Of a stretch of 64,000 bases of DNA, positions 27,732-54,800 are shown piece by piece. The position numbers and the translations under genes were made by a program. Each line of letters begins with the position of its first letter. Positions within the stretch are counted from its first letter, which is position 1. Source of the stretch: an uncultured Alcaligenaceae bacterium (lineage in GTDB: Bacteria; Planctomycetota; Planctomycetia; Gemmatales; Gemmataceae); the NCBI GenBank assembly GCA_964423615.1, contig CAYRFQ010000011.1:84548-148547 (forward strand). The letters are read 5' to 3'. The notes under the pieces were generated by a model, which saw nothing but the letters and a program-made list of their open reading frames with translations, searched no databases and was not told the origin of the DNA.

Positions 27732-27860
27732 CGGATCAACAAGTGTCGTGTTTGTGTTGGTTCATTGCGTTTCGTGGGTTTGTACCGACGGTTAGGCCCT
27801 ATCGCTCCCTGGGAGCTTAGAAACCAAACCACGACTCTTGTTTAGCCGACTGCTAGAGTG
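27732..27860 (+). repeat. Intergenic structured repeat element, copy A (family of 3 in this window)
   Basis: The 5' arm (GGACGGATCAacaAGTGTCGTGTTTGTgtTGG...TTTCGTGGGTTT) and the 3' arm (AAACCAAACCACGACTCTTGTTTAGCCGACT) are the conserved parts shared with the other two copies. Copy A's 3' arm is imperfectly complementary to its 5' arm. Confidence 0.7.
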
Positions 27861-28064
27861 TGCTTACTACTTTGTCCTCGCAGGTCTCAATAGTGAGTTT
27901 TCCACAACATTGAGGAGGCTTGAGAGAGCTTAGAATTTGGGGATTCTTTTGTTCCTCACGCTAATGGGAAGATTGATGACGAATGAAACATGATTTTAGT
28001 GTTGGCGGGTAAGGTAAGCCGAAAGCGGGGCAGGCGACGACACGCTCTACAAAAGGACATCGTC

Positions 28065-30356
28065 TCACCCCCGACTGACGATCTGCAATTTCGCCATCTT
28101 GGCTCGAAAGCTCCGTTCGCCGTGGGAAGGAAAGAGCACTTTGACGGTTTGGGTCGCTCCAACGCCATGCACTTGTGTGATTTTTCCGGCTCCATATTTT
28201 TCATGAAGAACGACAGAGCCAACTGTGTATTCATCGGGGTTCGCAGGAGTCACCTTGGCCGGTGACTCGGAGACTGGGTCATCTTGTCCACGAGGTTTAT
28301 TTTGCTTTTTGAGATGGTCAATGGCGACGCCCGCGTCGATCCAACCCTCTTCGGATGCTGTAGTCCCGGTGCGGAATTGGTTTGCAGCGCTTGTCGGATC
28401 GTCTCGGTCCCCGAGGTGTTCTCGATCGATGCCCTCCTCCGGCAACTCGAAGAGAAATCCGCTCGGCTCGGCCCAAAGGGTTTGCCCTCGGAACTCCCGG
28501 ACTTCTGCTAGTGTCAGGTAGAGTTCTTCCTTCGCACGGGTCATTCCGACGAACGCCAGCCGTCGTTCTTCTTCTACTTCCTCTTCTTTTTGTTGGGCTC
28601 GGTGATGGGGTAAGATGCCCTCCTCGACCGCCATCATGTATACGACAGGGAACTCCAATCCCTTGGAGGCGTGCAACGTCATGACAGACACACAATCCTG
28701 AGTTTCATCCCACCCGTCGAGGTCGCTTGCAAGGGTGATGTTCTCCAAGAAGTCGATGATCGTGTGCTCGTCGTTCTCTTGACCAAACTGTTTGGCTGCC
28801 GTGATCAACTCTTCCACGTTTGCGAGTCGTTGGTCGTCTTCCGAGTCGCCCGTGGCCAGCATATCTCTGTAGCCCGTTTGGTCGATGACTTCCTTGAGAA
28901 CGACGTCCGGCGAGAACGACAAAAACTCCCTCAAATTCGCCATCGTCGCGTAGAATTGTTTGAGTCCTTTTCGAGCTTTCCCTTTGATCGTGTCGATCCT
29001 ATCGACCTCCCCGGCTGCATCGAGCAACGGTAACTCTCTGGGTTCGGCATAATCTACAAGTCGCTGGAGAGATACTTTGCCGATTCCACGTGCTGGCTCG
29101 TTGATGATCCGTAGGAAAGATACGTCGTCGCGAGGGTTGACCAACAAACGTAAATACGCCAGGATGTCGCGGTTTTCTTTTCGGTCGTAGAAGGCGAGTC
29201 CGCGAACGATCTGAAACGGTACCCGATGTTTCACGAAGGCGCTTTCCAAAGTCCGTGTGAGGGCATTCATCCGAAGGAAGATGGCGAAGTCGTGGTACTT
29301 TCGTTTTCCAGATTTCACGGCTTCCTGGATCCGTCGGACGATGCCGTCGGCTTCGTCCACGGACGTCTTGAAGGTGATCACACCGACAGGAACGCCTTCG
29401 GGATTCTCTGTTGTGAGGCCTCGGGACTTTCGTTGCGAGTTGAACGCGATGAGGTGACTAGCCGTTCGCAAGATCGCTCTGGTGCTGCGGTAGTTCGCCG
29501 CGAGGGTGATAGTCCGGGCTTGGGGATAATCGCGTTCAAAGTCGAGGATGTTGCGGATGTCCGAACCACGGAACTTGTAGATCGACTGATCAGGGTCACC
29601 CACAACGCAAATGTTTTGGTTGTCCTTGGAAAAGGCGCGTGCGATTTCGTACTGTGCTTTATTTGTGTCCTGGTATTCGTCGACAAGGACGTAGCGGAAT
29701 CGTTCATCGAGTTCGGCCCGGAGGTCTGGACGGTTCTTCAACACTAACGCTAACTGGTAGAGCAAGTCGTCGAAGTCGAAGGCGTTGGCGTCCCGCATTC
29801 GTTTCTCGTAAATGGGATAGACGTGGGCCACCGTCTGGGTAAAAAAATCCTTCGCATCGTGTCCGTACTTCGGTGGCGTGAGGAGTTGATTCTTCGCCCG
29901 ACTGATGGCCCCCATGATCGTTTCAGGGGTGAACTTGACGTTGTCGAGGTCCGCTTGCTCGATCGCACTTTTGACCACCTTGACGCGGTCAGTCTGGTCG
30001 TAGATCGTGAAGTTCTTCTCAAGGTCAATTCGTTCAGCGTACTCTCGCAGCAACCTTGCTCCGAGACTGTGAAAGGTGCTTATCCAGACACGGCAGTTCG
30101 GGACCAACGATTCGATCCGCTGCCGCATTTCACCAGCGGCCTTGTTGGTGAACGTGATGGCCAAAATGTTGCGGGGTCGAATCCCTTGTTGGATAAGGTA
30201 CGCCACCCGACGTGTGATGACTCGGGTTTTCCCGCTACCCGGGCCTGCGACGACCAGGAGCGGTCCTTCGAGATGTGTCACAGCCTCACGTTGAGACGCT
30301 GTGAGGTCCTCCAACAAATCGACTTTGTCCTTGTCCCAGTCATCATTCATGGTCAA
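28065..30356 (-). CDS. uvrD: ATP-dependent DNA helicase UvrD/PcrA family
   Basis: Walker A (AGPGSGKTRVITRRVAYL), motif II (DEYQDTN) and Q-motif context (LTASQREAV) are present. The gene is full length, with a C-terminal Tudor-like tail. Confidence 0.9.
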   Translation of the reverse strand: MTMNDDWDKDKVDLLEDLTASQREAVTHLEGPLLVVAGPGSGKTRVITRRVAYLIQQGIRPRNILAITFTNKAAGEMRQRIESLVPNCRVWISTFHSLGARLLREYAERIDLEKNFTIYDQTDRVKVVKSAIEQADLDNVKFTPETIMGAISRAKNQLLTPPKYGHDAKDFFTQTVAHVYPIYEKRMRDANAFDFDDLLYQLALVLKNRPDLRAELDERFRYVLVDEYQDTNKAQYEIARAFSKDNQNICVVGDPDQSIYKFRGSDIRNILDFERDYPQARTITLAANYRSTRAILRTASHLIAFNSQRKSRGLTTENPEGVPVGVITFKTSVDEADGIVRRIQEAVKSGKRKYHDFAIFLRMNALTRTLESAFVKHRVPFQIVRGLAFYDRKENRDILAYLRLLVNPRDDVSFLRIINEPARGIGKVSLQRLVDYAEPRELPLLDAAGEVDRIDTIKGKARKGLKQFYATMANLREFLSFSPDVVLKEVIDQTGYRDMLATGDSEDDQRLANVEELITAAKQFGQENDEHTIIDFLENITLASDLDGWDETQDCVSVMTLHASKGLEFPVVYMMAVEEGILPHHRAQQKEEEVEEERRLAFVGMTRAKEELYLTLAEVREFRGQTLWAEPSGFLFELPEEGIDREHLGDRDDPTSAANQFRTGTTASEEGWIDAGVAIDHLKKQNKPRGQDDPVSESPAKVTPANPDEYTVGSVVLHEKYGAGKITQVHGVGATQTVKVLFPSHGERSFRAKMAKLQIVSRG

Positions 30357-30397
30357 CCTTCCTTCCCCACCTGTCGGGGTCGATTGGGTTTCCCCAA

Positions 30398-31362: not shown

Positions 31363-32553
31363 TCATGCGGCCGCTTTTTTCGCTGCAATCTGTTCAAACA
31401 ACTGGCGAAGTTGTTGGTAATGATGATCGAACGTCCATGAGTTGCCTGTCTTGCGGGCTGCAGATGCACAACGGTTTCTGTGTTCAGGGTCCAGGAGTTG
31501 GGCCATCGACCACGCGAGTTGAGAATGGTTGTGGGGGTCGTCCACGACATAACCATTCTGGCCCTGCTCTAGTAATTCGCTCGCGCCGTTGTACCGCGTC
31601 GTGACGACTGGAAGGGCACACGCCAGTGCTTCCAGGGCCACCAACGAGCAGGGATCGTAAAAGGTGGGATGAATCAAAAAGTCGGCAGCGAAGTAAGCTT
31701 CTCGCATCTCTCCGCAGTGTCCCACGAACGTCACCTTGTCGGCAATCCCCAACCGTTGGGCCATTCGAAGGTAGCGCCGGTGGTTGGGATGTCCCGCCAC
31801 GACGAGACGGAACTCGCGTGCTCGTGGTTGATATTCCGGCGTGTTGAAAAGAGTCGCAACGCTGTGCAACAGAGGGACAAGTCCCTTGAGTCGATAGTTC
31901 ATTGCGGCAAACAACCCAACAGTTTCGTTGGCTGGGATGTTCCATCGTGATCGCCATTCGAGTCGCCGACGAGGTCGGTCCGTCTCACAGAAGCGATTTG
32001 GATCGATCGCGCTGCGGATGACGTGAAGTTGCTCCGGTTGGATGCCATAGTGTTCGTGGAAGTGCCGCCGAACCATGAAACTGTTGACGACGATGGCCGT
32101 CGGAGGACAAGCGAGATACTGCTTCTGTTCCAGACGAGTGAACGACCGGTGTGCCAGATCTCCGCCCTTTAAGACCCGAACCAGATAACGCATCCACTCC
32201 TGTGGATATTTCCGGAGGTTGTGCTCGAACGACGCAGCATGGAGTCCACCCTGCGGGTAGAGGATATCCTGGCCCCACGTTTTATTGAACCCTATGGACA
32301 CGTCATGGACATTGCTTGCAAGTGCCTTTTCGCACCTGGCAGCAAACTTCCACGGACGAAGAAAACGGGGACCACTCACTCTCGGGATTCTGTGATATTG
32401 GACACCATCGGGCATCCGTGTCTCGTCCCATCGGCTGGCATACAAGTGGACCTGGTGTCCTTCCGATAGGAGTCGACGTGCGAGGTCCGTAATGTAGGTT
32501 TCACACCCACCTCGTTCGGGGAGGACGCTCTCGTAACAAAAAGCAATGTTCAT
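31363..32553 (-). CDS. Glycosyltransferase family 1 (GT4), LPS-core type
   Basis: The start MNIAFCYESVLPERGGCETYI was verified at an ATG at nt 32553. The C-terminal EX7E region (FLIHPTFYDPCSLVALEALACALPVV) is present. The stop overlaps the downstream kinase start by 4 nt. Confidence 0.8.
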   Translation of the reverse strand: MNIAFCYESVLPERGGCETYITDLARRLLSEGHQVHLYASRWDETRMPDGVQYHRIPRVSGPRFLRPWKFAARCEKALASNVHDVSIGFNKTWGQDILYPQGGLHAASFEHNLRKYPQEWMRYLVRVLKGGDLAHRSFTRLEQKQYLACPPTAIVVNSFMVRRHFHEHYGIQPEQLHVIRSAIDPNRFCETDRPRRRLEWRSRWNIPANETVGLFAAMNYRLKGLVPLLHSVATLFNTPEYQPRAREFRLVVAGHPNHRRYLRMAQRLGIADKVTFVGHCGEMREAYFAADFLIHPTFYDPCSLVALEALACALPVVTTRYNGASELLEQGQNGYVVDDPHNHSQLAWSMAQLLDPEHRNRCASAARKTGNSWTFDHHYQQLRQLFEQIAAKKAAA

Positions 32554-33467
32554 GCCGCAGCCTCTTTCTTGCTGGAACTCTGCCGCTCGATCCTTCGGAG
32601 TCGTTTCTCGTTGTGATCCTTGTAACGCCACCACTTCACTCGAATACACCATTCGAAAAACTTGGTCCGGAGACCACGGCGGGAACCTTGTCGGTAGAGT
32701 CTCCAAAAACGGATACAATCCCGAGTCGTCACGCCTTCAACGTCAGTGGAGTAAAGCAACTGGGCGAGATCCTTGATCTGCCACCAAGTCCTTGTCACTG
32801 GATGGTGCCCTAGGCGGTGGAAGTCGATCAAGTGCAAATCACCTTGGAGACTCTCCCTTTGATATTGTCCCGCCCAGCCGTAAATGACCGCGCGGGGCAG
32901 ATAGAAATGACAGAGATAAAGGTCCTTGTGAAAATGATTTCGTGTATGGAGTTTACGCGAGAGTCGGGCCATCTCGACGACGAGGGCCTTCTTCCACGTC
33001 AAAAAATCGCTAGGAGCAAGGACATCCTGGGCATAGGGGATCGCCTGATGCAAGGGGAGCATGTCGGCTAATTCTTTGATGGCGAGCATACTTTGAAGTT
33101 TCCATCCTGGACCAGCATACTCCGCCCCAGCGACAGGAGTTGGGACAGGTATTCCTTGTGCTTCAGCCCAGTTCAGGTGGCGCCACTCCTGCAGACCCGG
33201 AGCCCAATGTGCCCAAGGGAACAGAAGTGAGAAAAGACCTTGCCACCAAGGAAGCTGGTAATGGCGTTTGAGATACACGCTAAGCTGTTGACCGTTTTTC
33301 TTGATGATCCACCGACACGTCGAACGTCCCTGTTTCTCGTGAAAGTCGTCTGTGGGAATGACCGTCATGATGGTGTCCGGCCAGTCATTACCAACGAACT
33401 CGATCCAATCGGGGCGAGCTTTTATTGTCCGACATCCTCGGAAGAGCCGAGCGAAGAAGTTTCTCAT
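32550..33467 (-). CDS. Lipopolysaccharide kinase (Kdo/WaaP/InaA) family protein
   Basis: A protein-kinase-like catalytic loop (HFHKDLYLCHF) is present, with DFHRLG. The ~300-aa size is typical of WaaP/KdkA. Start and stop overlap the neighbouring genes. Confidence 0.65.
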   Translation of the reverse strand: MRNFFARLFRGCRTIKARPDWIEFVGNDWPDTIMTVIPTDDFHEKQGRSTCRWIIKKNGQQLSVYLKRHYQLPWWQGLFSLLFPWAHWAPGLQEWRHLNWAEAQGIPVPTPVAGAEYAGPGWKLQSMLAIKELADMLPLHQAIPYAQDVLAPSDFLTWKKALVVEMARLSRKLHTRNHFHKDLYLCHFYLPRAVIYGWAGQYQRESLQGDLHLIDFHRLGHHPVTRTWWQIKDLAQLLYSTDVEGVTTRDCIRFWRLYRQGSRRGLRTKFFEWCIRVKWWRYKDHNEKRLRRIERQSSSKKEAAA

Positions 33468-35065
33468 AAAGTGGCTAACTCCTCTCTCGACTCTTCATCC
33501 AGATCAACCACAGAGTGAGGCAGTGCCAGCTGTTGTATCTCATGGCTACCTTGACGGCTTACTGTCAGAAAGTAAGCGAACTCGTCTTGAGAACACAACG
33601 ATCCGAGCTGATCCCAGGTTTCCGACAGGTTGTGTCGAGGGTGTTGCCTCTTCACTCTTTCGGGGGCATTGATCATCACGGTGTGGGCTGTGCTTGAAAT
33701 TTTAACTCCGAGGACATCTGGTCCTTCAATGCTATATCCAACCTGGTGGGCTTTGTGGCATATAGCCCCGGCCTGGGAAAGGACGGAGCGTCGCAGTCGA
33801 GCGTTAGCTGCTCCGGTGGTCTTCACCAACCAGACATCCAGCGGCACGCAATCTCGAACCTGTTCGGTGAGGAGGAACGACCGCAGTGTGCCGCACTCCA
33901 TGACTTTGTGACCAACGGCCAAAACTGTCGGCACCGGGAACCCGAATCGTTCCAACCGAAAGATCGTTTTGGCCACCTCGAATTGTTTTCCAACCAGAGA
34001 CTTTTTTCGAAACCAGTTCCAGAAACGAGTCGTCGGAGGATCTTGGTCTTGAACAACGAGTGTTGCCGGGGATTGCCTCGTCTCAGAGATGTTTGTTGGT
34101 GGTAAAGTCAGGTCGAAAACCAGTCCCCCGTCATTCGCACACGATTCCGGCTTGGCGTACACATCCTCTAACACTTCGGGTACTCGTCCACCAACATCTG
34201 TCGCAAATTCACGGCTGAAGCAGAAGGTCTCCCCCTCGAACCAGATCAAGTTTTGTGCACCAGCCCGCAAGGGAGGTTGTCGCATTTCATGAAATCGACT
34301 TTTGTGCCACAGGCGACGTCGTCGCTGTCGAATAAACCGGAGTGCAGCCGAGAATGAAGGGACGTGGGTCTCAAGAGTCTCCATCGTATCGAGGTAGCAT
34401 CGCAGGAAGGATAGTTGTTGCTCCTCTGGAGCAAGATACGGGGCGATGGTGGCATGCAAAGAAGACAAATCCCGAAGGCGGTTGTTCCACGAACGTGAAC
34501 GAACGGCTCGCTGCCAGTCAAGCAGGATGATGTCATCCAGCTTTGCCGTTGAGAACAGGACGTGCTTGGAGTAGAGGTCTTTGTGGACCCATCCCGTAGC
34601 ATGAAAACGAGCGATTGTCGTTGCCAAGGACGTGAAGACCTCTTGACGGTCCAGGTGACAGTCGAGGTTTTCCAATAATTCACGCAAATCAACGACTTCT
34701 ATGCATTCTTTGAGGAGTAAGAACGCTTGTCCCTGGTCATCTTCTCCAGCAGCGATGGGGGTCGGAATTCCGACCACCTGCTTCTTGCGCATGACTTGGA
34801 GTGTGTGAAATTCACGAACAGACTTGGACGTCCAACCAAATCCATTGGTCCAGTTTTCCAAGCGATCTTTCCATCTCGTCTGGTGTTCTCTTTTGAGAAA
34901 ACACTGCTGGTGTTGAGTGCCGTTACCAACCTCAACCCGAGACACATTGCGGTCGAGGTGTCCGGAGTAGATGACCCCTTGCAGGTTGAGAAAGTCGGAG
35001 ACGGTCTTGAGTCCGTAGTGTTGCAAGAGTCGCTGGTAGTCAGGATGAATGAGCAATTTAGGCAT
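33464..35065 (-). CDS. Tandem (duplicated) lipopolysaccharide-kinase-family protein
   Basis: There are two kinase-like halves. The N-terminal half has GWVHKDLYSKHVLF...LLDWQR. The C-terminal half resembles the preceding gene (FEVAKTIFRLERFGFPVPTVLAVG...). The start is trimmed to MPKLLIHPDYQ. Confidence 0.6.
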   Translation of the reverse strand: MPKLLIHPDYQRLLQHYGLKTVSDFLNLQGVIYSGHLDRNVSRVEVGNGTQHQQCFLKREHQTRWKDRLENWTNGFGWTSKSVREFHTLQVMRKKQVVGIPTPIAAGEDDQGQAFLLLKECIEVVDLRELLENLDCHLDRQEVFTSLATTIARFHATGWVHKDLYSKHVLFSTAKLDDIILLDWQRAVRSRSWNNRLRDLSSLHATIAPYLAPEEQQLSFLRCYLDTMETLETHVPSFSAALRFIRQRRRRLWHKSRFHEMRQPPLRAGAQNLIWFEGETFCFSREFATDVGGRVPEVLEDVYAKPESCANDGGLVFDLTLPPTNISETRQSPATLVVQDQDPPTTRFWNWFRKKSLVGKQFEVAKTIFRLERFGFPVPTVLAVGHKVMECGTLRSFLLTEQVRDCVPLDVWLVKTTGAANARLRRSVLSQAGAICHKAHQVGYSIEGPDVLGVKISSTAHTVMINAPERVKRQHPRHNLSETWDQLGSLCSQDEFAYFLTVSRQGSHEIQQLALPHSVVDLDEESREELATL

Positions 35066-35145
35066 CGAGTGGCTTCGCTTTGTTGGAGGGTAATGCGACG
35101 TCACGCCATCAGACCGACACGTATTCAATTGATAGGACGTGCCCG

Positions 35146-36216
35146 TTACGCCACTTTCTTGTCGGGTGTCTTTTCAGCAGAAGGCGAACATCGCGACAGC
35201 AAGTTGATCGCCTCGACAAACACCTCATTGGCGGTCAGTTCTTTCATACATCTGTGATCCAACGGACACACTCGGAGTTGACAAGGCCCACAGGGAACAT
35301 CCCGTTGCAGACAAGTTTCTTTGGCGTGGTAGGTGACGGTCCAGGGTATATGCGTTGGGCCAAAAAGACTCACGACGGGCTTGTCAAAGGCTGCTGCAAA
35401 ATGCCTCGGGCCACTGTCGGTGGTGATCAACATGTCAGCGCGACGGACACATCCCTTGGTCAGTCCAATCGACTGGGGCACGTCGGCCAGAGTCTTGACT
35501 CCATCCCTTCGAGAAAGGTTCGCGATCTGACGTGCCAGGTCCCGTTCCTTTGGTCCACAAAGCACCAGTATGCCACTGCCTCGCTCCTCGACCAGTTTTC
35601 GGGCGAGTGTTGCGAAGTATTCTGTTGGCCAGTGTTTGGCAGCACCATAGGCAGCTCCTGGGTTGAGGCAAATGATCTCTGGGTACTTGCCCAGGTCGTA
35701 GCGTTCCCAAACCATTGTGGTCGCTTCCTCATCCTGGGGAGTTGTATACAGCTTCATCCGAACCCCAGGATGGGGACACCCGACTTGTTCCACCAAGAGG
35801 TTGTAGGCGTCGATGATGGGGCTCGGTTTGAAGTGTCCCTTCTCGTCCCGGAGTGGCTCCAGTCGGTCAGTCAGTAACCATCTGCGACCGTAGCGGTTGT
35901 ACCCAATACGTCGACGACATTTCCCAGCCCAAGCGACCATAGCTGACCGAAACGAATTGGGGAATATCACAGCAAGATCGATTCCGCGTCGACGAAGTTT
36001 CCAGGCGACACCGGGCCACCGACGCGACAACGGTCCCTTCTTCTCGAGGGGAATGAGTTCGTCGAACCAGGGTGCTCCTTCGAGGACATCTCCGACGTAA
36101 GGCTTGAGGATCCCGACGAACGAGGCCGAAGAGAAATGATGTCGTAGACTCCGAATGGCAGGCGTTGCCATGACGACATCGCCAATCCAGTTTGGGAGAA
36201 ATACCGCAATTCTCAT
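35146..36216 (-). CDS. ADP-heptose:LPS heptosyltransferase (GT9)
   Basis: MRIAVFLPNWIGDVVMATPAIRSLR is the GT9 hallmark N-terminus. ...HFAAAFDKPVVSLFGPT also fits. Confidence 0.8.
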   Translation of the reverse strand: MRIAVFLPNWIGDVVMATPAIRSLRHHFSSASFVGILKPYVGDVLEGAPWFDELIPLEKKGPLSRRWPGVAWKLRRRGIDLAVIFPNSFRSAMVAWAGKCRRRIGYNRYGRRWLLTDRLEPLRDEKGHFKPSPIIDAYNLLVEQVGCPHPGVRMKLYTTPQDEEATTMVWERYDLGKYPEIICLNPGAAYGAAKHWPTEYFATLARKLVEERGSGILVLCGPKERDLARQIANLSRRDGVKTLADVPQSIGLTKGCVRRADMLITTDSGPRHFAAAFDKPVVSLFGPTHIPWTVTYHAKETCLQRDVPCGPCQLRVCPLDHRCMKELTANEVFVEAINLLSRCSPSAEKTPDKKVA

Positions 36217-36305
36217 CGAGAGTTCCTTCTCACTGGGGTGCCTGTGCTGCGAAGACAAGGGATCGATGCACTTTCTGGTCTGACCCAGACCAGGCGATAA
36301 TGACT

Positions 36306-37799
36306 CTACGCTGCTCGGAGGTTGCCTGAAAGATTCGTTGCCGGGTAGGCCACCTCCACCGGTGGTTGCACCCGGCCCCCATACGACTCAACGAATTCCT
36401 TCTCAACGGCCTCAGTACTGATGGCGTTTTCCCTTGGCACAAGGACATCGGGGCGTATCATCTCGATTAAATTCCAAGGACTCGAGTCGTCGAATGTCAC
36501 CACGTAGTCAACGGACTCCAAGCTGGACACCACGGCAACACGTGCTTCGTGTGAGTTGACCAGAGGGTTGTGACCTTTCGAGTGATGATCGCTCGCGTCC
36601 GAACTCACACCGACAATGAGGACGTCGACTTCCGCCCTCGCCGCCCGGAAAGAATTAACATGCCCGACTTGCAACATGTCGAAATCGCCACTGGCAAACC
36701 CTACTCGTTGACCCAACGTCCGACGGATGCGCAACTCCTGGGACAAATCCTTTAGGGACACCACCTTCACGATGCTAGGGACCAAATCCGTTTGTGTTCC
36801 GGCTCCATGATGCAGAAGGTCTTGCAGTATTTCATCCCGAGTGACCGTCGCAACCCCGATCTTCTCGACTTCCAAGCCACCGGCAACGTTCGCCAATGCG
36901 ATGGCTTCTTCGTAATTTCGTCCAGAGGCCAAGACCATTCCCAACATGGCCAAGACCATGTCCCCTGCCCCGGTGATGTCGTACACTTGACGGGGGCGTG
37001 TGGGGAAGATCTTTTCTGTCCCATCTTGGTGAACAAACGCCATCCCGTCCTTGTCCAGTGTAATGAGCGAGGCCTCCAGACCGAGATCTTGAACTAACTG
37101 CTGCCCTGCTCGGAAAACGTCCTCTTTGTTGTTGAGGGTCAATTCTGTTCCGAGACTCGCTTCGAGTCGGTTTGGGGTGATTGCCGAGCAGCCATGATAC
37201 TTCCGATAGTCCTGACCTCGGATGGGATCTACGAGAATGCGAAGATTATTCCGTTTGGCGTTCGCAATGACCTGGGCGAGTAAGTTGGGTGTACACACCC
37301 CCTTGTCGTAGTCACTCACCAACACGATGTCCGACTGAAGGACCTGGCGTTGGATGTACCGTCCGAGTTCTCGTTCGATACCGTAGCCCACCGTCGACGC
37401 GTCTTCATGGTCGACGCGTAACATCTGTTGGGGGTGCCTGTGTTGTGCGCGTCCGATGTAACGTTCTTTGACGGTCGTTGGCCGGTCGGGATCCGAGATC
37501 ACGCCCTCGTAGTTGATAGACAACTCCGTGAGGAGTTGTTTCACTCGCAAGGCGTCCGAATCTGCCCCGACGACACCAGCGACTGAGACCTTGGCACCCA
37601 ACGCCCGCAGCATGGTGGCTACGCTGCTCGCGCCCCCGAGTCGTTCTTCCTTTCGGTCGGCTTTGAGGAGGATGACGGGAGCTTCCTGACTGATGCGTGA
37701 GGCATCACCCCAGACATACCGGTCGAGCATCAGGTCCCCGACAACCAACACCCTTGGTTGTCCGAGATTCTGCACCAGTTCGATCAAGTCTGCGGACAT
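36306..37799 (-). CDS. hldE: Bifunctional D-glycero-β-D-manno-heptose-7-phosphate kinase / heptose-1-phosphate adenylyltransferase
   Basis: An N-terminal ribokinase-like domain (RVLVVGDLMLDRYVWGDASRISQEAPV) precedes a C-terminal cytidylyltransferase domain (VGFASGDFDMLQVGHVNSF). Confidence 0.85.
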   Translation of the reverse strand: MSADLIELVQNLGQPRVLVVGDLMLDRYVWGDASRISQEAPVILLKADRKEERLGGASSVATMLRALGAKVSVAGVVGADSDALRVKQLLTELSINYEGVISDPDRPTTVKERYIGRAQHRHPQQMLRVDHEDASTVGYGIERELGRYIQRQVLQSDIVLVSDYDKGVCTPNLLAQVIANAKRNNLRILVDPIRGQDYRKYHGCSAITPNRLEASLGTELTLNNKEDVFRAGQQLVQDLGLEASLITLDKDGMAFVHQDGTEKIFPTRPRQVYDITGAGDMVLAMLGMVLASGRNYEEAIALANVAGGLEVEKIGVATVTRDEILQDLLHHGAGTQTDLVPSIVKVVSLKDLSQELRIRRTLGQRVGFASGDFDMLQVGHVNSFRAARAEVDVLIVGVSSDASDHHSKGHNPLVNSHEARVAVVSSLESVDYVVTFDDSSPWNLIEMIRPDVLVPRENAISTEAVEKEFVESYGGRVQPPVEVAYPATNLSGNLRAA

Positions 37800-37838
37800 G
37801 GTGGGATACCTCATCTATTGTGGTCGTCGATGGCAGTA

Positions 37839-38849
37839 TTAAGCCGCTTTCGCTGGAACGGTCTCGTCGACGACCGGTTTTATAGCAACCAACTGAGCCG
37901 CCACGGCTGCATGAATCAACGGAATCATGATTTCGTGATGTCCTGTAATCTCGATCCCTTCACTCGAAGGTCGCTCCAGAACGTTCACTCGAGACCGATA
38001 ATTGGATTGCTTGTCGATATCTACGGTGATCAAGCCATCGAGTGAGTACCCAAAGTTGATCGCTACTGAGACGGCTTTGAGGAACACTTCAGGCATGATC
38101 ACAGCACTGCCCAGATTGCACCAAACGCCTCGCTCCATGGTGGCTACCACCGAACACAGCCGTCGGAAGTCGATCAGGCTTGCTTCGCCCAGGGATGCTC
38201 CATCGACGTGGGGGTGCATGTGGACTATGTCAGTCCCCAAGGCCACATGAACTGTGCAAGGTATCTTAGCTTGATAGGCTGCCAGCAGTACACTGCACTC
38301 GGGATACGCACAATCTTGTGTGTCCAAGAATTCTCCCAAGGCCCACCCAAGTCCGACGTCGTTCTCAGCTCCAGTCCTGGCTGCGAGGGCAAAGGCATCT
38401 GCGGTTTCCCGGGCCATTCCGAAGCGTCCCAGTGGCAGCTGCGATGCCACGTCCTCGCTCGTTTTGCCACCGATGGCCAGCTCGACGTCGTGGATCGCTG
38501 CCGCACCATTGAGCGAAATTCCTGTCAATAGCCCCTTGCGAATCCAGTCGATCAGGTACGGTCCGCAACCGGTCTTGATGACGTGTCCACCGAGGGCAGC
38601 GACGACTGTCCGGCCCTCTTCGTGCGCCCCGCACAGGTGTGAGCACACTTTCCGAATGCTATTCCCGGCGAGTTGTCGAGGCAGCGAGTTGATCCAATCG
38701 TTGACCGAAACTTGACCTGTGACGGGCCTCCCCAAGTCAGTGTGGAACACCTTCGACGGTCGGGAGGTGAGGTTGTACGTTTGCAGACCATGGAGGTCGA
38801 AAGGGGGGAATTTTTGTTGATTATCTTCTGGGATGGGAGACGGGTTCAC
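37839..38849 (-). CDS. Hypothetical protein, deoxyhypusine-synthase-like (DHS-like NAD-binding fold) family; function unknown
   Basis: This 336-aa gene sits inside the LPS operon. Loose pattern similarity to the DHS glycine-rich regions (GISLNGAAAIHDVE, CNLGSAVIMPEV) is all that supports the call. Its stop overlaps the upstream gene by 4 nt. Confidence 0.4.
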   Translation of the reverse strand: MNPSPIPEDNQQKFPPFDLHGLQTYNLTSRPSKVFHTDLGRPVTGQVSVNDWINSLPRQLAGNSIRKVCSHLCGAHEEGRTVVAALGGHVIKTGCGPYLIDWIRKGLLTGISLNGAAAIHDVELAIGGKTSEDVASQLPLGRFGMARETADAFALAARTGAENDVGLGWALGEFLDTQDCAYPECSVLLAAYQAKIPCTVHVALGTDIVHMHPHVDGASLGEASLIDFRRLCSVVATMERGVWCNLGSAVIMPEVFLKAVSVAINFGYSLDGLITVDIDKQSNYRSRVNVLERPSSEGIEITGHHEIMIPLIHAAVAAQLVAIKPVVDETVPAKAA

Positions 38850-39889
38850 TCGGCTGCTTCCTTTAGCATGCGGTCAAGACGGTCCCGGCCTTCGGTGATC
38901 CGCAGCTCGATGCGTAATGCCCATAGCTGACGTTCGCCGATACGGTTGAGTCGAATCTTGACCAAATCCTTTTGGGTCGTAACGATCACGCAATCCATTG
39001 CCAGGTTCCTTGCCCAGCGTCGCAGGTCTTCGACGTCTTCACGTGTGTAAGCGTGGTGGTCGGAAAACGTGCGAAAGTCTACTAACTCGACGTCCAACAT
39101 TTCAAGTGTGTTCCGAAAAGCCTGTGGGTTGCCGATTCCACAAAACGCGGCGACCTTAGTCTCTTGAAGTCGTGACAGTGGCGATGTCTCCTGATCGGAG
39201 TTAATCAAAGTCGTGGGTGAGTGTGTCGTTTGAACGATGGGCTTATCGGGAGCCAAGCTTTGGATTCGAGTTAGAATCCTGTTGTATTCCTCCGGTGTCA
39301 CTTGGTCGCTCCGGGTGACGAGAATCAAGCTCGCCCGTTGGAGGCCCGAGAGTGGTTCGCGTAAGAGTCCTCTCGGAAGGACTGATCCGTAGCCCCAAGG
39401 TGCCAATGCATCGATCAGTACGATGTCCAAGTTACGGGCGAGGCGTCGGTGTTGGAATCCATCGTCCAAGACTGCGACTTCGCTTTCGAGTTCTTCTGCT
39501 GCCGTCGTTGCCAGTTCGCTTCGATCGGGCCCCTGGAGATGCGGCACGTCTGGAAGATTTTCTTCCAGGAGGAGTGCTTCATCGTTGGGGCCTTCTTTAA
39601 CACCGTATCCTCGGCTCAAGATGACTACCCGTAGGTCGTGTCTCCGAAACCACTTCGCGACGTACTCCACGCAGGGTGTCTTCCCAGTCCCTCCGACGGT
39701 CAAGTTTCCGATGCTGATGACCGGGATGGGGGCTTCGTGGGTCTTTTTCCAGCCAGCGTCGAAGAGCCAGTTTCGGGCCCGAGCAGCGATTGCGTAGGGT
39801 ATACTCAGTAGCCACAGGCCGAGACGTAGAAGCCATGGCCAGAGGCCGCGTTGTTCTCCTCGGATCAGGCAAAGGTAATACTCTTGCAC
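38846..39889 (-). CDS. lpxK: Tetraacyldisaccharide 4'-kinase
   Basis: VISIGNLTVGGTGKTPCVEYV is the LpxK P-loop. The size is right. Confidence 0.8.
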   Translation of the reverse strand: MQEYYLCLIRGEQRGLWPWLLRLGLWLLSIPYAIAARARNWLFDAGWKKTHEAPIPVISIGNLTVGGTGKTPCVEYVAKWFRRHDLRVVILSRGYGVKEGPNDEALLLEENLPDVPHLQGPDRSELATTAAEELESEVAVLDDGFQHRRLARNLDIVLIDALAPWGYGSVLPRGLLREPLSGLQRASLILVTRSDQVTPEEYNRILTRIQSLAPDKPIVQTTHSPTTLINSDQETSPLSRLQETKVAAFCGIGNPQAFRNTLEMLDVELVDFRTFSDHHAYTREDVEDLRRWARNLAMDCVIVTTQKDLVKIRLNRIGERQLWALRIELRITEGRDRLDRMLKEAAE

Positions 39890-40212
39890 ACCTGTGTCAC
39901 CAGTTTCTGGGATGCGAGCGTGAGTTTAGCGAAAGGTGTTATATTCGCAGCGGCGTTTTTGTGTCAACGGTATTCGCGTCCTCGTCCCATGTTGAAACGG
40001 GTTTTCGACGCGCCGGGAACATTACCTGAAAAGCCGACGCGAGTGCAAAGAGAGGAACCTTCACTTGTGCTTCGGGTGTCGTCGGAGAGGTCCCCGATTG
40101 CGTTGAGTGGACTTGCTTTTTCCAAGGTGAAGGGCTGGAACGCCTCGAACCGAAAAGAACATACGCGTACACCGATTTTCTTGGAACACCCCTCATCCTC
40201 AATCATCTCCCC

Positions 40213-40345
40213 TCGGGTAGGCGGGTCAATTGTGTCGCGTTTGTTGTGGTTCTTTGGGTTCGGTGGGTTTCCACTCACGGCGAGGATCTGGCGCCCCTTC
40301 GGAGCCTAAAAACCAAAACACGACTCTTGAGCCGACTACCCGAGC
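40213..40345 (+). repeat. Intergenic structured repeat element, copy B
   Basis: The 5' arm is GGTAGGCGGGTCAattGTGTCGCGTTTGTTGTGGTTCTTTGGGTTCGGTGGGTTT. The 3' arm is AAAACCAAAACACGACTCTTGAGCCGACTACCCGAGCG. It is alignable with copies A and C. Confidence 0.7.
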
Positions 40346-42667: not shown

Positions 42668-43888
42668 TCAGGCGACTGCCGCGAGTAACCCCTCGGCGTG
42701 TTCGGCTTCTTCGTTGCGGATGAAGGTGATTTGTTCTTTCAAGTCGGTGAGAATGTCCCGAATGTGGTCCTCAGTTAAGGGAAATTCGTTCTGGATTTCG
42801 GCCTCCACTTTTTCCAACTTATTCGTCGTGGAACCTAGCGTTTTTTCTCCCTTGGCACCTTTCTCGGCATAGACTTTGGCTCGCTTGGTGATCAACTCCT
42901 TGGCCGCCTTGAAGGGTTTGATGTCGTCGGGCAAGGCACAGTTGGCCAGTTCCTTCCATCGGTCATGAAGCACTTGGTACCCACCAGCGAGTTCTTCGAG
43001 CGTTGGGTTCTCGAGGATGTCAGCAGCTTCGACAAGGAAATCATGATACAAGGCCCGGTGGAGTCCTCCGACATCGCTGAGAGTTTCGATCGAAACGTAG
43101 ACGTCGCGGAGGGCTCGGTACATCAACCCATCGCGATAGAGTTTGAGCCAACCGTCCTTGTTTTTGTCGTTATCGATGAGCTTGACCCATTTGTCTAGCC
43201 CGGCGAGAGTGAACGTGCCGATTCGGCCACGAAGCATCGACTCGGCGCAGGCTCGAATTCCCAACGTTACCGCTGATTGGAGTTGTTTGAGCGAAACGTC
43301 ACCTGTGGAGTGCAACGTGAAGGTACGGTTCTTGTGACTGCAAACTCCGGCCCGAGCCTCTGCGAGTTGTTCGAGCGAAAGTGTCCATTTTGTCGGGGCT
43401 CGGTCGTTGACCAAGGCGACATTGTTTCCTTCGTCCACACCGGAAACGAGGAACTGTCCCATGAACCCGTCGCAAGCGTCGTGCGAATTCAAAATAAATG
43501 GGATTTTTGGTCTCGAACACCAGACGATTGTGGGGTGTCCTTGCTCGAGTTCATCGATAAGGTTCTGCAAGGCCTTCTTCTTCGCAGAGGTTTCGGTGAT
43601 GTGGGAATCCAGTTCCAATCGGTCGCAGAACTCTTGATACCAACTCGAATCCGTGGCCATGGCCTTGTATCGCCCGACGATATGGAGTCCAGTTCCCATC
43701 CCGTGACGAACGACCGATGGACAGAAAGAGTATCCGGCCCCAATTCCTCCCGCCACGCCGAAACACAAGGCTTCGGAAAATAACTCGTGGGTTTTGGGAT
43801 GGGTCACACCAACAAACGCCATCAGATTCCTCAAGTTCGTGGAATCCGTGAGGACCCCTCCGGCGTGTTCATAATTCGCAACTTGCAT
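42668..43888 (-). CDS. Hypothetical protein (possible BtrH_N-like papain-fold N-domain + C-terminal helical domain)
   Basis: A ~405-aa protein with no secretion signal. The N-domain has a conserved-looking Cys/His (ALCFGVAGGIG...SFCPS...H). The assignment is tentative. Confidence 0.45.
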   Translation of the reverse strand: MQVANYEHAGGVLTDSTNLRNLMAFVGVTHPKTHELFSEALCFGVAGGIGAGYSFCPSVVRHGMGTGLHIVGRYKAMATDSSWYQEFCDRLELDSHITETSAKKKALQNLIDELEQGHPTIVWCSRPKIPFILNSHDACDGFMGQFLVSGVDEGNNVALVNDRAPTKWTLSLEQLAEARAGVCSHKNRTFTLHSTGDVSLKQLQSAVTLGIRACAESMLRGRIGTFTLAGLDKWVKLIDNDKNKDGWLKLYRDGLMYRALRDVYVSIETLSDVGGLHRALYHDFLVEAADILENPTLEELAGGYQVLHDRWKELANCALPDDIKPFKAAKELITKRAKVYAEKGAKGEKTLGSTTNKLEKVEAEIQNEFPLTEDHIRDILTDLKEQITFIRNEEAEHAEGLLAAVA

Positions 43889-47207: not shown

Positions 47208-47247
47208 AGAATCCAAAGACTCAGCTAAAATTTTCGGAGCTCAGGCA

Positions 47248-49177: not shown

Positions 49178-49981
49178 CTAAATGTGTATGCCGTGCTGTC
49201 TTAGCCACGGGACAGCCCATTCGGCGAGGTTACGAGACAGCGGCAGAAAGGGATCGTCTGTGTAGTCGATCCGACGGCCAAAACCACCAGCTTCGTAACA
49301 CCGAGCCAGGAGGGTTTGCAGGTCCAGGACCAGATCCGGATCGCTGCCCGCAACCGGAACGGCTACCTTCGGTAACCGATCTCTGAGGGTGAATCCCCAC
49401 ACTTCGCAAAATTCACGACCTCCGCTGCGAGAGAGACTGACAAGGTAGTGGGACTTGCCGCGACGGAGGATTCGTTCTTGCGGAGCCAAGACGGTGTGGA
49501 CCCCGGTCCGAAGCAGATCGATTTCGAGTATATGACTGTCGTCAGCCAGAGCCTTTCTTTGTCGTGTGCGATACAGTTCATGGCCCTTGTTCCCAATTGT
49601 TTTATTGGGGAAGCTGAGAAACTCAATAACCGTGAGAGGCTCATCGCGTCCCGTCGTAGCGAAAATTTCGACGTAGTATTCGCGGAGTTCCTCGTGCGTC
49701 GAAGGGATGTTCCATGGTGGCGTGACGGCGGACTCAGGTTCGTTGGGATGGGTGAAGTGGTTGTTCGAGGGAGTGATGCATAATGGACTCGGTGAAAGGT
49801 GGTCCGAAATGTCTATTTCGGCTTCGGTCCGGTAAACGCGGTCTTGGATGTTCACAAGGTAGCGGCGCGGCAGAACTTCTGTGAGGGTATCGGCCAGGTG
49901 AGTTATGAAATATTGTTGGAGATCGTGCCACAGGATTGGATGTTCCAGGTAAGGGTCCATTCCAGGGAAGGGACTGGACAT
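49178..49981 (-). CDS. DUF4058-family hypothetical protein
   Basis: The N-terminus MSSPFPGMDPYLEHPILWHDLQQYFITHL is characteristic of the DUF4058 proteins common in Planctomycetes and cyanobacteria. Confidence 0.55.
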   Translation of the reverse strand: MSSPFPGMDPYLEHPILWHDLQQYFITHLADTLTEVLPRRYLVNIQDRVYRTEAEIDISDHLSPSPLCITPSNNHFTHPNEPESAVTPPWNIPSTHEELREYYVEIFATTGRDEPLTVIEFLSFPNKTIGNKGHELYRTRQRKALADDSHILEIDLLRTGVHTVLAPQERILRRGKSHYLVSLSRSGGREFCEVWGFTLRDRLPKVAVPVAGSDPDLVLDLQTLLARCYEAGGFGRRIDYTDDPFLPLSRNLAEWAVPWLRQHGIHI

Positions 49982-52426: not shown

Positions 52427-54463
52427 ATGACAGCACCCCAAAAAGAACAACGACCGCCTTCCGGCAATCGCCGCCGTCCGGAGGCGATGCCCGGTGGTGC
52501 GCTGTGGGTTTTGATCTTGGTGCTTGTCCTGTTGGTGTTGGGATTGCTCTTTTGGCGAACGACCGGCCTCGTGGACTACAAGTCGGAGTTCATTGATCTG
52601 CTCGTGGTAAAGGGTTACGAGGCGGCTCAGGCCGAAGCAAAAAAGGAAGACAAGAAGCCCAACGCGATCCCGAACGCCTTCATCGAAGAACTCGAAATCA
52701 TTGGACGACGCGTTCAGGGGCAGTTGACACAACCAGCAGAAGAGCTGGCGTTGCCCGAAACACTCCAGGAAAAAATTCCTCAGAAGACTTTCGTCGTTTG
52801 GGTTCCTGACTCCGAAATCCAGAATGGTGCGTTGACGAGTAAGCTCGACAAGTATGGGGTGAACTACCGCAGCCGTCAGGAACAATGGAATTGGGGTGCA
52901 ACGCTCGTTTTGTTTTTGTTGCCCACGGCTCTGCTCATCGGTCTGTTCGTGTTGTTCGTGTTGCCGCGTTTTCGAGACCCATTGGGTGGTGGTTTCCTCT
53001 CGAGCTACATCAAAAGTCCAGCACGCCGCTACGAGAAAACCAAGGGTCGCGTGACGTTCGACGACGTCGCCGACATGGAATACGCCAAGAGTGAACTGCA
53101 GGAAATCGTCGAATACCTCAAGACGCCGGAGAAGTTCCAGAGGCTTGGGGCCCAAGTTCCGAAGGGCGTTCTGCTGATTGGTCCTCCGGGGACGGGGAAG
53201 ACACTTCTCGCGCGGGCCACCGCTGGTGAGGCGGGTGTGCCGTTCTTCAGCATCAGTGGTTCGGAGTTCATCCAGATGTTTGTGGGGGTCGGGGCGAGCC
53301 GAGTGAGGGACTTGTTCAAAACGGCCAAGGACACGGCCCCGTGTTTGATCTTCATCGACGAGATCGATGCCGTCGGGCGAATGCGAGGCGCAGGCGTGGG
53401 TGGTGGGTCAGACGAACGCGAGCAAACCCTCAATCAAATCTTGAGTGAAATGGATGGGTTTCAGCCGAACGAATCGATCATCGTACTTGCCGCCACGAAT
53501 CGCCCGGACGTTCTCGACTCCGCCCTTCTTCGTCCTGGTCGTTTTGACCGACACGTTACGATCGACCGGCCGACCTGGCAAGGCCGCAAGCAAATCCTTG
53601 AGGTCCACACACGCAACAAGCCCCTCGACGAAGGCGTCGACCTTGAGCAGATCGCCCGAACGATGATCGGAATGACCGGCGCCGACCTGCGTAATCTGTG
53701 CAATGAGGCCGCACTTTTGGCCACGCGAGAAGGCAAGCACCGCATCGGTCGTGTCGATTTCGAACACGCGGCGGATCGGGTGTTAATGGGCCCGAAGCGA
53801 GAAGAAGTGCTGACGACCGAAGGCAAGCAACGCACGGCCTATCACGAAGCGGGACACGCTCTCGTAGGGTGGCTCGAACCGGAATGCGACCCGCCGTTGA
53901 AGATTTCGATTGTGCCACGTGGTCGGGCGCTGGGCGTCGTCTTCAGTCTTCCGGAAGAGGAACGGTTTCACCACGGGCTCGACTACTTCAAGGCCCGTTT
54001 GGCCCAGGTCATGGGTGGCCGGGCGGCCGACCGACTCATCTATGGCCAAGCCTTCTCGGGCCACGAAGACGACCTGAAGCAAGCCACCAAGATTGCCCGC
54101 TACATGGTGACGCACTGGGGGATGAGCGACCGACTCGGACCGATGGCCTTTCGGATCGGCGAAGAGCACGTATTCCTCGGCAAAGAAATCCAGGAGGCAC
54201 GCGACTTCAGCGAGTCCACCGCTGCCGTGATCGACGAAGAAATCCAGAAACTCCTCCGGGAAGCCGACGAACGGGCCGAGCAACTGCTTGCATCGCACCG
54301 AGATTTGCTCGATAAACTTGTCGAAGCTTTGCTCGACCAAGAAGAACTCTATCGCGAGCAGATCAAAGATATCCTTGGCCCCAACACCACATCGAACGTC
54401 GAGAAAAACGGGCAGAAGGAAGAAACGACATCGCCCCAACCGAGTAGTTCGGAAAACGAGTGA
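52427..54463 (+). CDS. ftsH: ATP-dependent zinc metalloprotease FtsH
   Basis: Two TM helices are followed by the AAA Walker A motif (GPPGTGKT), Walker B (IIFIDEID), SRH, and the HEAGHAL zinc site. Confidence 0.95.
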
Positions 54464-54664
54464 CAGCTTTTAGAGCGGTTTGGGGTTTTGTGAGATACGG
54501 TGGGCAGTCTCTCGAGGTACTTAGCCCAGCGCATTTCCTGCTTCGCTCGGTTCAGGCTTCTCGAGGTAAGACCACTTCGTGATCCTTCCGGTTCCGTTAC
54601 GTTCTCCGCTTCACTCGCTATGATTCCCGCTTCGCTCGGGTTTGGGGCCTTTTTTCCGCAAGGA

Positions 54665-54800
54665 TGGACGGATCAGTAAGTGTCGTGTTTGTTCTGGCTC
54701 TTTGGGTTTCGTGGGTTTGAACACACGGCTAAGATCTCTCGCTTCGAAAGAGCTTACAAACGAAAACACGACACTTGTTTATCCGACTACCCAAGCGGGG
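54665..54800 (+). repeat. Intergenic structured repeat element, copy C
   Basis: The 5' arm is TGGACGGATCAgtaAGTGTCGTGTTTGTTCTGGCTCTTTGGGTTTCGTGGGTTT. The 3' arm is ACAAACGAAAACACGACACTTGTTTATCCGACTACCCAAGCG. The 5' GTGTCGTGTTTG pairs with the 3' AAACACGACAC. Confidence 0.7.

Follow-up and report, generated by a model that had tools for sequence, protein, structure and literature searches.

A non-coding, hairpin-forming element of about 135 to 155 nt occurs three times, always on the + strand, in the 64-kb stretch of DNA that we analysed (the window). Judged from sequence comparison, these copies probably represent a palindromic repeat of MITE/ERIC/REPIN type that is non-autonomous, restricted to one lineage, and now or formerly mobile. 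Most likely we are dealing with an undescribed family of a type that is common in bacterial DNA, and not with a new class of RNA gene; the feature is of an ordinary kind, and what is new is its sequence. The earlier note on this DNA had proposed either a small-RNA family or a MITE- or REP-like element. The second proposal fits the anatomy better, as the element is a palindrome over its whole length, has terminal inverted repeats, and is present in equidistant copies scattered over unrelated contexts; the first is weakened by the lack of covariation and of a promoter or terminator. If our reading is correct, an undescribed palindromic repeat family is added for an uncultured lineage of the Gemmataceae, a family in which mobile DNA and non-coding RNA have hardly been explored. 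Repeats of this kind can affect how stable the mRNAs of adjacent genes are (in this case ftsH, uvrD and lpxK), and, because each of the three copies contains open frames of 45-90 codons, they can confuse gene callers.

Three copies in unrelated intergenic settings

Both blastn and nhmmer recover three + strand copies essentially where the earlier note had placed them (Table 1). Their alignment is well beyond chance, with 75-80% identity across 127-134 nt in pairwise blastn (E 1e-19 to 6e-29). A core of 131 nt is followed by a 3' tail of about 25 nt that terminates in ACTTTG(A), which brings the element to about 155 nt. The blastn alignment of copies B and C extends about 25 nt past the core on the 3' side, to positions 40362 and 54813, and the ACTTTG motif is spaced by 23 nt in the tail of copy A versus 24 nt in the other two. 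A profile built from the three copies recovers each of them, by construction, with E = 5e-48 to 6e-44, and its best non-self match in the window reaches only E = 0.15. In a repeat search of the 64 kb, the element is the only long repeat family. Successive copies are separated by 12.5 and 14.4 kb along the contig, and they are equidistant in sequence (pairwise identities 0.77, 0.78 and 0.78), a star-like divergence that is expected after a burst of copying.

Table 1. Positions in the window of the element copies, their arms and tails, surrounding inverted repeats and adjoining genes
Feature	Position	Strand	Source and remarks
Gene left of copy A, 253 aa	26583-27344	-	no Pfam match
Left arm of locus-specific inverted repeat around copy A, CTCACTATTGCGACCTGCGCGG	27619-27640	.	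partner 27876-27897
Copy A core	27721-27851	+	blastn boundaries; nhmmer E = 5e-47; covariance model 141.6 bits
Copy A left arm, helices 1 and 2	27722-27756	+	consensus structure; pairs with 27822-27858, several G:U
Copy A right arm	27822-27858	+	consensus structure
Copy A 3' tail	27852-27874	+	alignment; only the terminal ACTTTG (27869-27874) common to B and C
Right arm of locus-specific inverted repeat around copy A	27876-27897	.	begins two bases past tail ACTTTG
uvrD, right of copy A	28065-30356	-	Pfam
lpxK, left of copy B	38846-39889	-	Pfam
Copy B core	40211-40337	+	blastn, nhmmer, covariance model
Copy B left terminal inverted repeat, CTCGGGTAGGCGGGTCAA	40212-40229	+	repeat search; pairs with 40327-40344; 18 nt, 89% complementary
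Copy B right terminal inverted repeat, TTGAGCCGACTACCCGAG	40327-40344	+	repeat search
Copy B tail, purine-rich, CCCGAGCGAGAAGAAGGACTTTGA	40338-40362	+	blastn; homologous to copy C tail
HEAT-repeat gene, right of copy B	40786-41565	+	Pfam
ftsH	52427-54463	+	Pfam; stop codon 195 nt before copy C core
Two nested left arms around copy C, locus-specific	54602-54617, 54624-54640	.	repeat search
Copy C left arm	54656-54690	+	repeat search; pairs with 54764-54798; 35 nt, 77% complementary
Copy C core	54658-54788	+	blastn, nhmmer, covariance model
Copy C right arm	54764-54798	+	repeat search
Copy C tail, purine-rich, ACCCAAGCGGGGAGAGGAACTTTGA	54789-54813	+	blastn
Matching right arms around copy C	54830-54846, 54869-54884	.	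repeat search
Hydrolase/PEP-utilising gene, downstream of copy C	54966-57428	+	

The settings of the copies differ: copy A lies between two genes on the - strand, copy B in a divergent promoter region, and copy C between two genes on the + strand. Pfam agrees with the uvrD, lpxK, HEAT-repeat and ftsH identities given in the earlier note. Copy A had been described there as lying downstream of uvrD; the identity of the gene stands, but uvrD is on the - strand, and copy A is thus antisense to both adjoining genes.

These locations bear on the reading that the palindrome is maintained by the host and is not mobile, with a REP/BIME-like function as a platform to which a nucleoid protein, a gyrase-like protein or a regulatory protein binds or, alternatively, as a hairpin that blocks transcription or exonucleases at selected intergenic sites. 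Copies are indeed found at gene ends and in promoter regions, and the sequences of the arms are conserved beyond mere complementarity. On the - strand the left arm also presents an outward-facing -35-like TTGAYC, with which a -10-like hexamer directed toward lpxK is aligned in copy B. However, the position of the element relative to gene ends and starts is inconsistent, its + strand hairpin is not followed by a T-run, and just 3 of the roughly 40 intergenic regions of the window carry it. Moreover, no copy is present at the lpxK-cluster loci of three relatives, where a conserved function should have left one (the LpxK of the nearest relative is at most 66% identical, and synteny at the site of copy B is lost). 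We regard maintenance by the host as quite improbable.

Nothing similar was found in any collection searched, as would be expected from the lineage specificity claimed in the earlier note. Among 185,579 species genomes the pattern GTGTCGYGTTTG N17-21 GTGGGTTT had 12 single matches in unrelated taxa, with about 11 estimated by chance, and none of these GTDB matches rescored with the profile (best E = 0.04). The source MAG (GCA_050331035.1) evidently lies outside this genome set, as the pattern, present in all copies, yielded no match in Gemmataceae. The pattern GTGGGTTT N44-50 AMCACGACNCTTG matched four times in JGI metagenomes, and 0 of the four rescored; a scan of IMG/VR gave two pattern matches, neither of which contained a covariance-model match. 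There was no blastn match in plasmids or phages, no covariance-model match in 54 kb from the nearest relatives, and no further copy in the 629 nt by which the window could be extended through its flanking proteins. Both open frames were without a match among 5.8 billion predicted proteins, a collection from which the open frames of the window's own elements are also missing, so that this negative carries no weight.

An apparent fourth variant, found where the NCBI MAG contig JBHJHG010000261.1 ends, was rejected as a contig-end artefact. This contig and the window are identical apart from the terminal ~100 nt on each side, where differences rise to about 20% at one end and 30% at the other. The differences at the other end fall in a coding region without codon-position bias, and relative to copy A, 23 of the 37 differences in the apparent variant hit columns that are invariant in all three copies, with 5 agreeing with B or C. 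On these three grounds we do not count it as a member of the family.

A hairpin over the whole length of the element

Each copy forms a long imperfect hairpin whose ends are terminal inverted repeats with the consensus CTYGGGTAGNCGG...CCGNCTACCCRAG. The consensus hairpin comprises 47 pairs, 28 of them in helices 1 and 2, and 90% of its cells are paired, versus 38-46% when the 3' partners are shifted by 1-3 columns. The complementarity of the 5' and 3' arms that the earlier note described is therefore genuine. Its further statement that the arms of B and C are reverse complements is true of copy C (GTGTCGTGTTT and AAACACGACAC match perfectly), but in copy B two positions are mismatched. The profile also matches the reverse strand of each copy, over positions 4-146 in B and C and 15-144 in A (E 2e-9 to 4e-5), which reveals that the element is palindromic over its whole length. 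We also considered a local REP-like hairpin in the 5' arm (RCGG...UCGY) that has one A-U to G-C switch, and rejected it as too weak (4 bp with a loop of 10-11 nt).

Single-copy RNA folds have z = -2.5 to -3.6, and both strands of the copies fold significantly better than shuffled sequences, as RNA and as DNA. The strands are not equivalent: the consensus fold energy is -41.2 kcal/mol for the + strand versus -27.6 kcal/mol for the - strand, and G:U outnumbers A:C by 21 to 2 cells and by 14 to 2 pairs (p = 0.004).

These are properties one might expect of paralogous small-RNA genes, each giving a + strand RNA of about 135-160 nt with a long G:U-rich hairpin and a purine-rich, single-stranded 3' tail, and acting in trans or engaging an RNA-binding protein or a double-strand-specific RNase, as its substrate or decoy. 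In keeping with this, paired columns are invariant more often than unpaired ones (72% versus 46%, p = 0.003), the length of the element is nearly constant at 22% divergence, with two indels only (1 nt and 3 nt), and all copies are on the + strand, irrespective of how the adjoining genes are oriented. However, the same orientation in three of three copies has a chance probability of p = 0.25, and the G:U excess is not significant (7 to 2, p = 0.18) in the outer helices, whose register is independent of the folding program. Compensatory double changes, which the earlier note had named as a check on the stem, occur at 0 of the 47 pairs, and the covariation score equals that of column shuffles, a comparison of low power with three sequences. 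Conservation is lowest in the unpaired stretches, which is where one would look for a seed region, and a continuous hairpin of about 60 bp is atypical for bacterial trans-acting small RNAs.

Signals of an RNA gene also speak against this explanation. No sigma-70-like promoter upstream or intrinsic terminator downstream is common to the copies on the + strand, although this is a weak negative, as promoters of Planctomycetota are poorly known. Homology begins abruptly, exactly at the left terminal inverted repeat, which means that the copying did not include a promoter. A match to Rfam, another check proposed earlier, is absent from the whole window at the gathering score; sub-threshold matches are to generic hairpin models only, e.g., mir-2831 with 24.6 bits versus a gathering score of 90. 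We consider paralogous small-RNA genes unlikely. They would be novel: a search of the literature on small RNAs in Gemmataceae found nothing, and we know of no small-RNA family described in Planctomycetota.

The copies show no codon periodicity, with the 30 variable columns split 10/11/9 over the codon phases, which agrees with the earlier claim that they share no coding potential; a small peptide from the frame containing CRVC.GSLGFVG was rejected on this ground.

An attC site, a retron msr/msd, a CRISPR remnant, a tRNA-like element, chance or an assembly artefact are all highly improbable origins. The size and imperfect palindrome of the element superficially resemble those of attC sites (57-141 nt); however, its ends are CTYGGGTAG ... 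CTACCCRAG, without R'' (RYYYAAC) or R' (GTTRRRY) core sites, and the copies are not part of a cassette array but lie 12-14 kb apart among housekeeping genes. Retron, CRISPR and integron origins were rejected, as the 28 window proteins scanned include no reverse transcriptase, cas gene or integrase, and a tRNA-like origin was rejected because neither a tRNA or tmRNA nor an Rfam match was found. The Logan short-read contigs retrieved are 100% identical to the window in their overlaps, and one of them spans copy B, which argues that the element is not an artefact of assembly.

Possible routes of mobility

Under the favoured reading as a mobile palindromic repeat, the copies would derive from one master copy by trans-mobilisation, through a transposase encoded elsewhere in the genome, and would have decayed by about 11% per copy since then. 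The high level of pairing together with the lack of compensatory double changes is roughly what neutral decay of a palindromic ancestor leaves. For the enzyme there are two candidates: a DDE transposase with the terminal inverted repeats as its recognition sites, and an HUH/Y1 (IS200/RAYT-type) enzyme acting on the + strand hairpin in single-stranded DNA. We lean slightly toward the single-strand route because the + strand hairpin is rich in G:U, all copies point the same way, on the strand whose GC skew is positive, and target-site duplications are absent. The G:U excess and the better + strand fold point to a single-stranded, strand-specific form, for which a classical MITE of the DDE type, recognised as double-stranded DNA, would have no need. 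Once in place, copies may be co-transcribed with their neighbours, and the long hairpin may act passively on the processing or stability of the mRNA, in the way of ERIC and Correia elements.

Several observations count against mobility. Target-site duplications at the ends, a third check that the earlier note had named, are not consistent among copies: none of the common boundaries, all of which were scanned, has a direct repeat of at least 3 nt at the same offsets in all three. Candidates confined to one copy, TACTA at A and ACCCCTC at B, are no more than chance would give. Short target-site duplications could be lost from copies as diverged as these. The 28 window proteins scanned against Pfam include no transposase or Y1 transposase, and the 3' tail renders the element asymmetric. 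Three copies are known from the window, and their genome-wide number could be very low, which would also count against a mobile element.

Two of the copies are themselves enclosed by inverted repeats. Around copy A, 20 of 22 positions match (p <= 0.001, local flank alignment with 1000 shuffles), and within the window this inverted repeat occurs at this locus only. Two nested pairs of arms surround copy C, with marginal support from the flank alignment (p = 0.04); the inverted repeat flanking copy B is not significant (p = 0.12). Copies A and C thus appear nested in local palindromes, as insertion into a pre-existing hairpin would leave them. A more specific explanation is a hairpin-seeking element that would move as single-stranded DNA by means of an HUH/Y1 enzyme into the apices of pre-existing intergenic palindromes or terminator hairpins, its orientation being fixed relative to replication; we give little credence to this explanation, or to a long-hairpin small-RNA family in its place. 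The hairpin-seeking element would explain why local inverted repeats surround A and C, why target-site duplications are absent, why the hairpin tolerates G:T and folds best on the + strand, and why every copy is on the strand whose GC skew is positive. With a complete genome in hand, and only then, the family would be well suited to testing hairpin-targeted or single-strand transposition, given its strand-biased hairpin and its nesting in local palindromes.

Comparison with known systems

With the structured small-RNA families of Rfam the element has in common that it is conserved, about 135 nt long and predicted to fold stably; it differs from them in scoring below the gathering score and in showing no covariation.

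Bacteria, Planctomycetes among them, are known to carry palindromic repeats of this kind as well as GTAG-tagged REPs accompanied by tyrosine transposases (PMC3733652, PMC10969869), and the planctomycete R. baltica has GTAG repeats as well as many RAYT genes (PMC3733652). Like REPINs, which are associated with RAYT (Y1/HUH) enzymes, the element forms a long hairpin from two inverted halves, with GTAG near each terminus (exact in three of the six arms, with one mismatch in the remaining three); the strand-specific quality of the hairpin and the absence of target-site duplications are further similarities. However, GTAG lies inside the long stem between the arms, whereas in REPs it is an unpaired tag, and the arms lack the G+C-rich stem-loop of 20-40 bp that defines REPs, a single arm giving a stem of only 3-4 bp with a loop of 10-11 nt. 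The window contains no RAYT gene.

MITEs are 70-300 bp long, have terminal inverted repeats of 15-30 bp and no coding capacity, and often lie beside coding sequences (PMC3733652, PMC10969869). Like Correia/NEMIS, RUP, Nezha and Chunjie, the element is non-coding, intergenic, bounded by terminal inverted repeats, within this size range with or without its tail, and dispersed in several copies over one genome. It differs from these MITEs in that flanking target-site duplications are absent and complementarity extends across the whole element rather than being confined to the termini; nor did the window proteins scanned reveal a related insertion sequence or transposase.

The ERIC or IRU elements of Enterobacteriaceae and Vibrionaceae, and YPAL of Yersinia, are non-coding, imperfect palindromes over their whole length of about 127 bp; they occur in tens to hundreds of dispersed, intergenic copies and are often transcribed, and the hairpin in the RNA can alter mRNA stability (PMC10969869). 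The element described here belongs to another phylum, has an asymmetric 3' tail, and shows no sequence similarity to ERIC (there was no blastn match to the element in 5,426 E. coli genomes). Nevertheless, it resembles ERIC in its nearly equal size, its lack of coding capacity, its palindromic character throughout, and the long hairpin that its RNA would form.

Copies and fold of the element

The earlier note had described a repeat in three copies, and reading and then aligning the regions confirmed it as genuine; a repeat search of the window places the element as the sole long repeat family within the 64 kb. The nhmmer profile was made from copies A, B and C and hence matches them by construction (each at E = 5e-48 to 6e-44), with no site better than E = 0.15 in the rest of the window. 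Pairwise blastn among the copies gives 75-80% identity across 127-134 nt, and the whole core contains only two indels, both small. The three pairwise identities over a 98-nt ungapped stretch (0.77, 0.78 and 0.78) reveal that the copies are equidistant. A short-read Logan contig spans copy B uninterrupted, which agrees with the copies being diverged and not near-identical. Beyond the core, copies B and C also share a purine-rich 3' tail of ~25 nt, which reaches 40362 and 54813 and closes with ACTTTGA; copy A has kept just the ACTTTG, at the same spacing.

Coordinates of the element copies and of other features in the window
Feature	Position	Strand	Basis
Copy A, shared core	27721-27851	+	alignment
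Copy B, shared core	40211-40337	+	alignment
Copy C, shared core	54658-54788	+	alignment
uvrD	28065-30356	-	Pfam
Inverted repeat around copy A, arms	27619-27640 / 27876-27897		
13-nt ACAGTCGTTGATC	27649-27661		
-35/-10-like pair at copy B	40202-40229	-	
Direct TTCYCCGCTTCRCTCGG-like motifs at 54538, 54606, 54627	54534-54640	+	
Inverted, degenerate TTCYCCGCTTCRCTCGG versions (two)	54830-54884		
Lipopolysaccharide core synthesis cluster	31363-39889	-	
WD40 protein, 840 aa	4942-7464	+	
WD40 protein, 901 aa	14834-17539	-	
DUF4058 protein	49178-49981		
Protein without Pfam match	3174-4253		
Protein without Pfam match	11893-12810		
Protein without Pfam match	18166-18912		

The consensus fold of the element is one long imperfect hairpin of 47 pairs, whose outer arms read CTYGGGTAGNCGG(R)TCA ... 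CCGNCTACCCRAG. Folded singly, on either strand, the copies are more stable than their dinucleotide shuffles, with z = -2.2 to -4.5 as RNA and z = -2.7 to -5.6 as DNA. The profile also aligns to the reverse complement of each copy, over its positions 4-146 in copies B and C and 15-144 in copy A, which makes the element a true quasi-palindrome. Compensatory double changes are absent from the 47 pairs in the three copies, and the covariation score is that of column shuffles. In the alignment 90% of the pair cells are paired, versus 38-46% with the partners slid; by our own neutral estimate, ~11% decay per copy from a palindromic ancestor would leave ~83% of the pairs intact, and as the observed 90% was measured on pairs picked by the folding program, this comparison gives no clear sign of selection on structure. 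A palindrome maintained by the host, as a protein-binding or transcript-stabilising structure, is a reading that we consider quite improbable.

Transcription signals and strand asymmetry

Although frames of 45-90 codons are open in all copies, the variable columns are spread 10/11/9 over the three codon phases; the element is not coding, which upholds the earlier reading that the copies share no coding potential. In the Rfam search no family reached its gathering score, the sub-threshold matches being generic hairpins, and no tRNA or tmRNA was found; the element is no known RNA. An attC site, a retron and a CRISPR remnant were ruled out by end sequences, spacing and gene content. Copies A, B and C have no promoter-like site and no + strand terminator-like site in common, and the left inverted repeat is precisely where their homology starts. 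In this the element does not resemble an independent transcription unit.

The left arm, read on the - strand, has a -35-like hexamer that faces outward: TTGATC at 27734-27739 in copy A, TTGACC in copy B. The copy B hexamer is aimed at lpxK and has a -10-like GATGAT 16 nt away, in the flank; judged from sequence, the pair could be a putative hybrid promoter of the sort that insertion-sequence and MITE ends create.

The + strand has many more G:U pairs than A:C mismatches, 21 against 2 when counted as cells and 14 against 2 as pairs (p = 0.004), and its consensus energy is -41.2 kcal/mol versus -27.6 on the - strand. Nothing argues more strongly than this asymmetry for a single-stranded, strand-specific form, be it RNA or single-stranded DNA. 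Most of the G:U excess lies in the central helices, where the folding program chose the register; the outer helices have a non-significant 7 to 2. One orientation in three of three copies has a chance probability of p = 0.25. Cumulative GC skew stays positive across the window, from which, by the usual rule, we take the + strand to be probably the leading one. A family of paralogous small-RNA genes, one of the two possibilities raised in the earlier note, would be in keeping with the asymmetry between the strands, with the conservation of length and with the single orientation of the copies; such a family would here have neither covariation nor a shared promoter or terminator, and we regard it as unlikely.

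Flanking repeats and gene context

A locus-specific inverted repeat of 22 nt (20/22 matches, p <= 0.001), unique in the window, surrounds copy A and, on the left, 80 nt of unshared sequence. TTTT follows its right arm, and the element may have inserted into this repeat as an already existing hairpin or terminator. About 70 nt upstream of copy A, ACAGTCGTTGATC is 85% complementary to the start of copy A's 5' arm (27734-27746); it may be left over from a second partial copy in inverted orientation, or may offer that arm another partner for pairing. Nested local inverted repeats and a T6/A6 pair enclose copy C, and the 220-nt region as a whole adopts a single hairpin fold (z = -4.4); the copy C flank test alone is marginal (p = 0.04), and the flanking repeat of copy B is not significant (p = 0.12). 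The flank pattern would fit insertion into pre-existing hairpins, with most of the support coming from one locus. Just upstream of copy C a motif close to TTCYCCGCTTCRCTCGG occurs three times directly, and two inverted versions lie downstream, which turns the spacer after ftsH into a nested palindrome of ~280 nt with copy C at its center. The rest of the window has no enrichment in this motif (7 matches vs 2.8 expected).

Pfam searches bear out the neighboring genes named earlier. As uvrD is encoded on the - strand, copy A is antisense to both its neighbors; copy B lies between lpxK (- strand) and a HEAT-repeat gene (+ strand), and copy C between ftsH and a hydrolase/PEP-utilising gene, both on the + strand. 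The 28 window proteins scanned are all ordinary or typical of planctomycetes, with no transposase, integrase, reverse transcriptase or Y1/HUH enzyme among them. The window encodes two large WD40 beta-propeller proteins, a DUF4058 protein and three proteins of 248-359 aa without a Pfam match. The gene lpxK heads a lipopolysaccharide core synthesis cluster (one gene without Pfam match, PfkB/cytidylyltransferase, GT9 heptosyltransferase, two Kdo-kinase-family genes and GT4), whose order is mostly kept in Gemmataceae relatives with LpxK only 62-64% identical. Proteins 100% identical to the window LpxK occur in the Gemmataceae MAG GCA_050331035.1 and in Logan run SRR6462993; that of the next relative is only 66% identical, so that the lineage is isolated in current databases.

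Distribution and kind of element

Distribution was scanned with two different two-block patterns, each matching copies A, B and C. These gave 12 matches in 185,579 species-representative genomes, about the chance number estimated beforehand for the first pattern, and four in JGI metagenomes, none of which stood up to rescoring with the element profile. The element was not found in IMG/VR, plasmids, phages or E. coli genomes, and a covariance-model search of 54 kb surrounding lpxK in three relatives was likewise negative. The family, known from the three window copies, thus seems restricted to this Gemmataceae lineage. An apparent variant copy at the end of NCBI contig JBHJHG010000261.1 is not a genuine member: this 15-kb contig equals the window except for the last ~100 nt at both ends (19 and 29 differences; window 27724-27828 and 42701-42798). 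One of these ends falls on copy A; the other is inside the 3' end of a protein-coding gene, and there the differences have no codon-position bias. The differences look like a contig-end assembly artefact.

Of the two possibilities in the earlier note, the MITE-like one is preferred, if by a modest degree of confidence. The element is somewhat more probably than otherwise a small palindromic non-autonomous repeat of the MITE/REPIN-like kind, strict membership in MITEs, REPINs or ERIC not being established: target-site duplications as in MITEs were looked for and none common to copies A, B and C was found, the element falls outside the REP stem-loop definition, and it has no homology to ERIC. 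Its mobilisation would depend on either a DDE enzyme or an HUH enzyme that works on single-stranded DNA. It appears doubtful that the copies are single-strand transposons aimed at hairpins, or that they form a family of long-hairpin sRNAs in Planctomycetota. As a sequence family the element is new, without a match in the collections searched, but its kind is familiar. Small palindromic non-autonomous repeats form a well-known class that includes MITEs (ERIC, YPAL, Correia, Nezha) and REPIN-like dimers (PMC3733652, PMC10969869). Like these, the element is short and non-coding, has terminal inverted repeats and is palindromic over its whole length, occurs as scattered, equidistant copies in unrelated intergenic contexts, carries no transcription signals of its own and is confined to one lineage.
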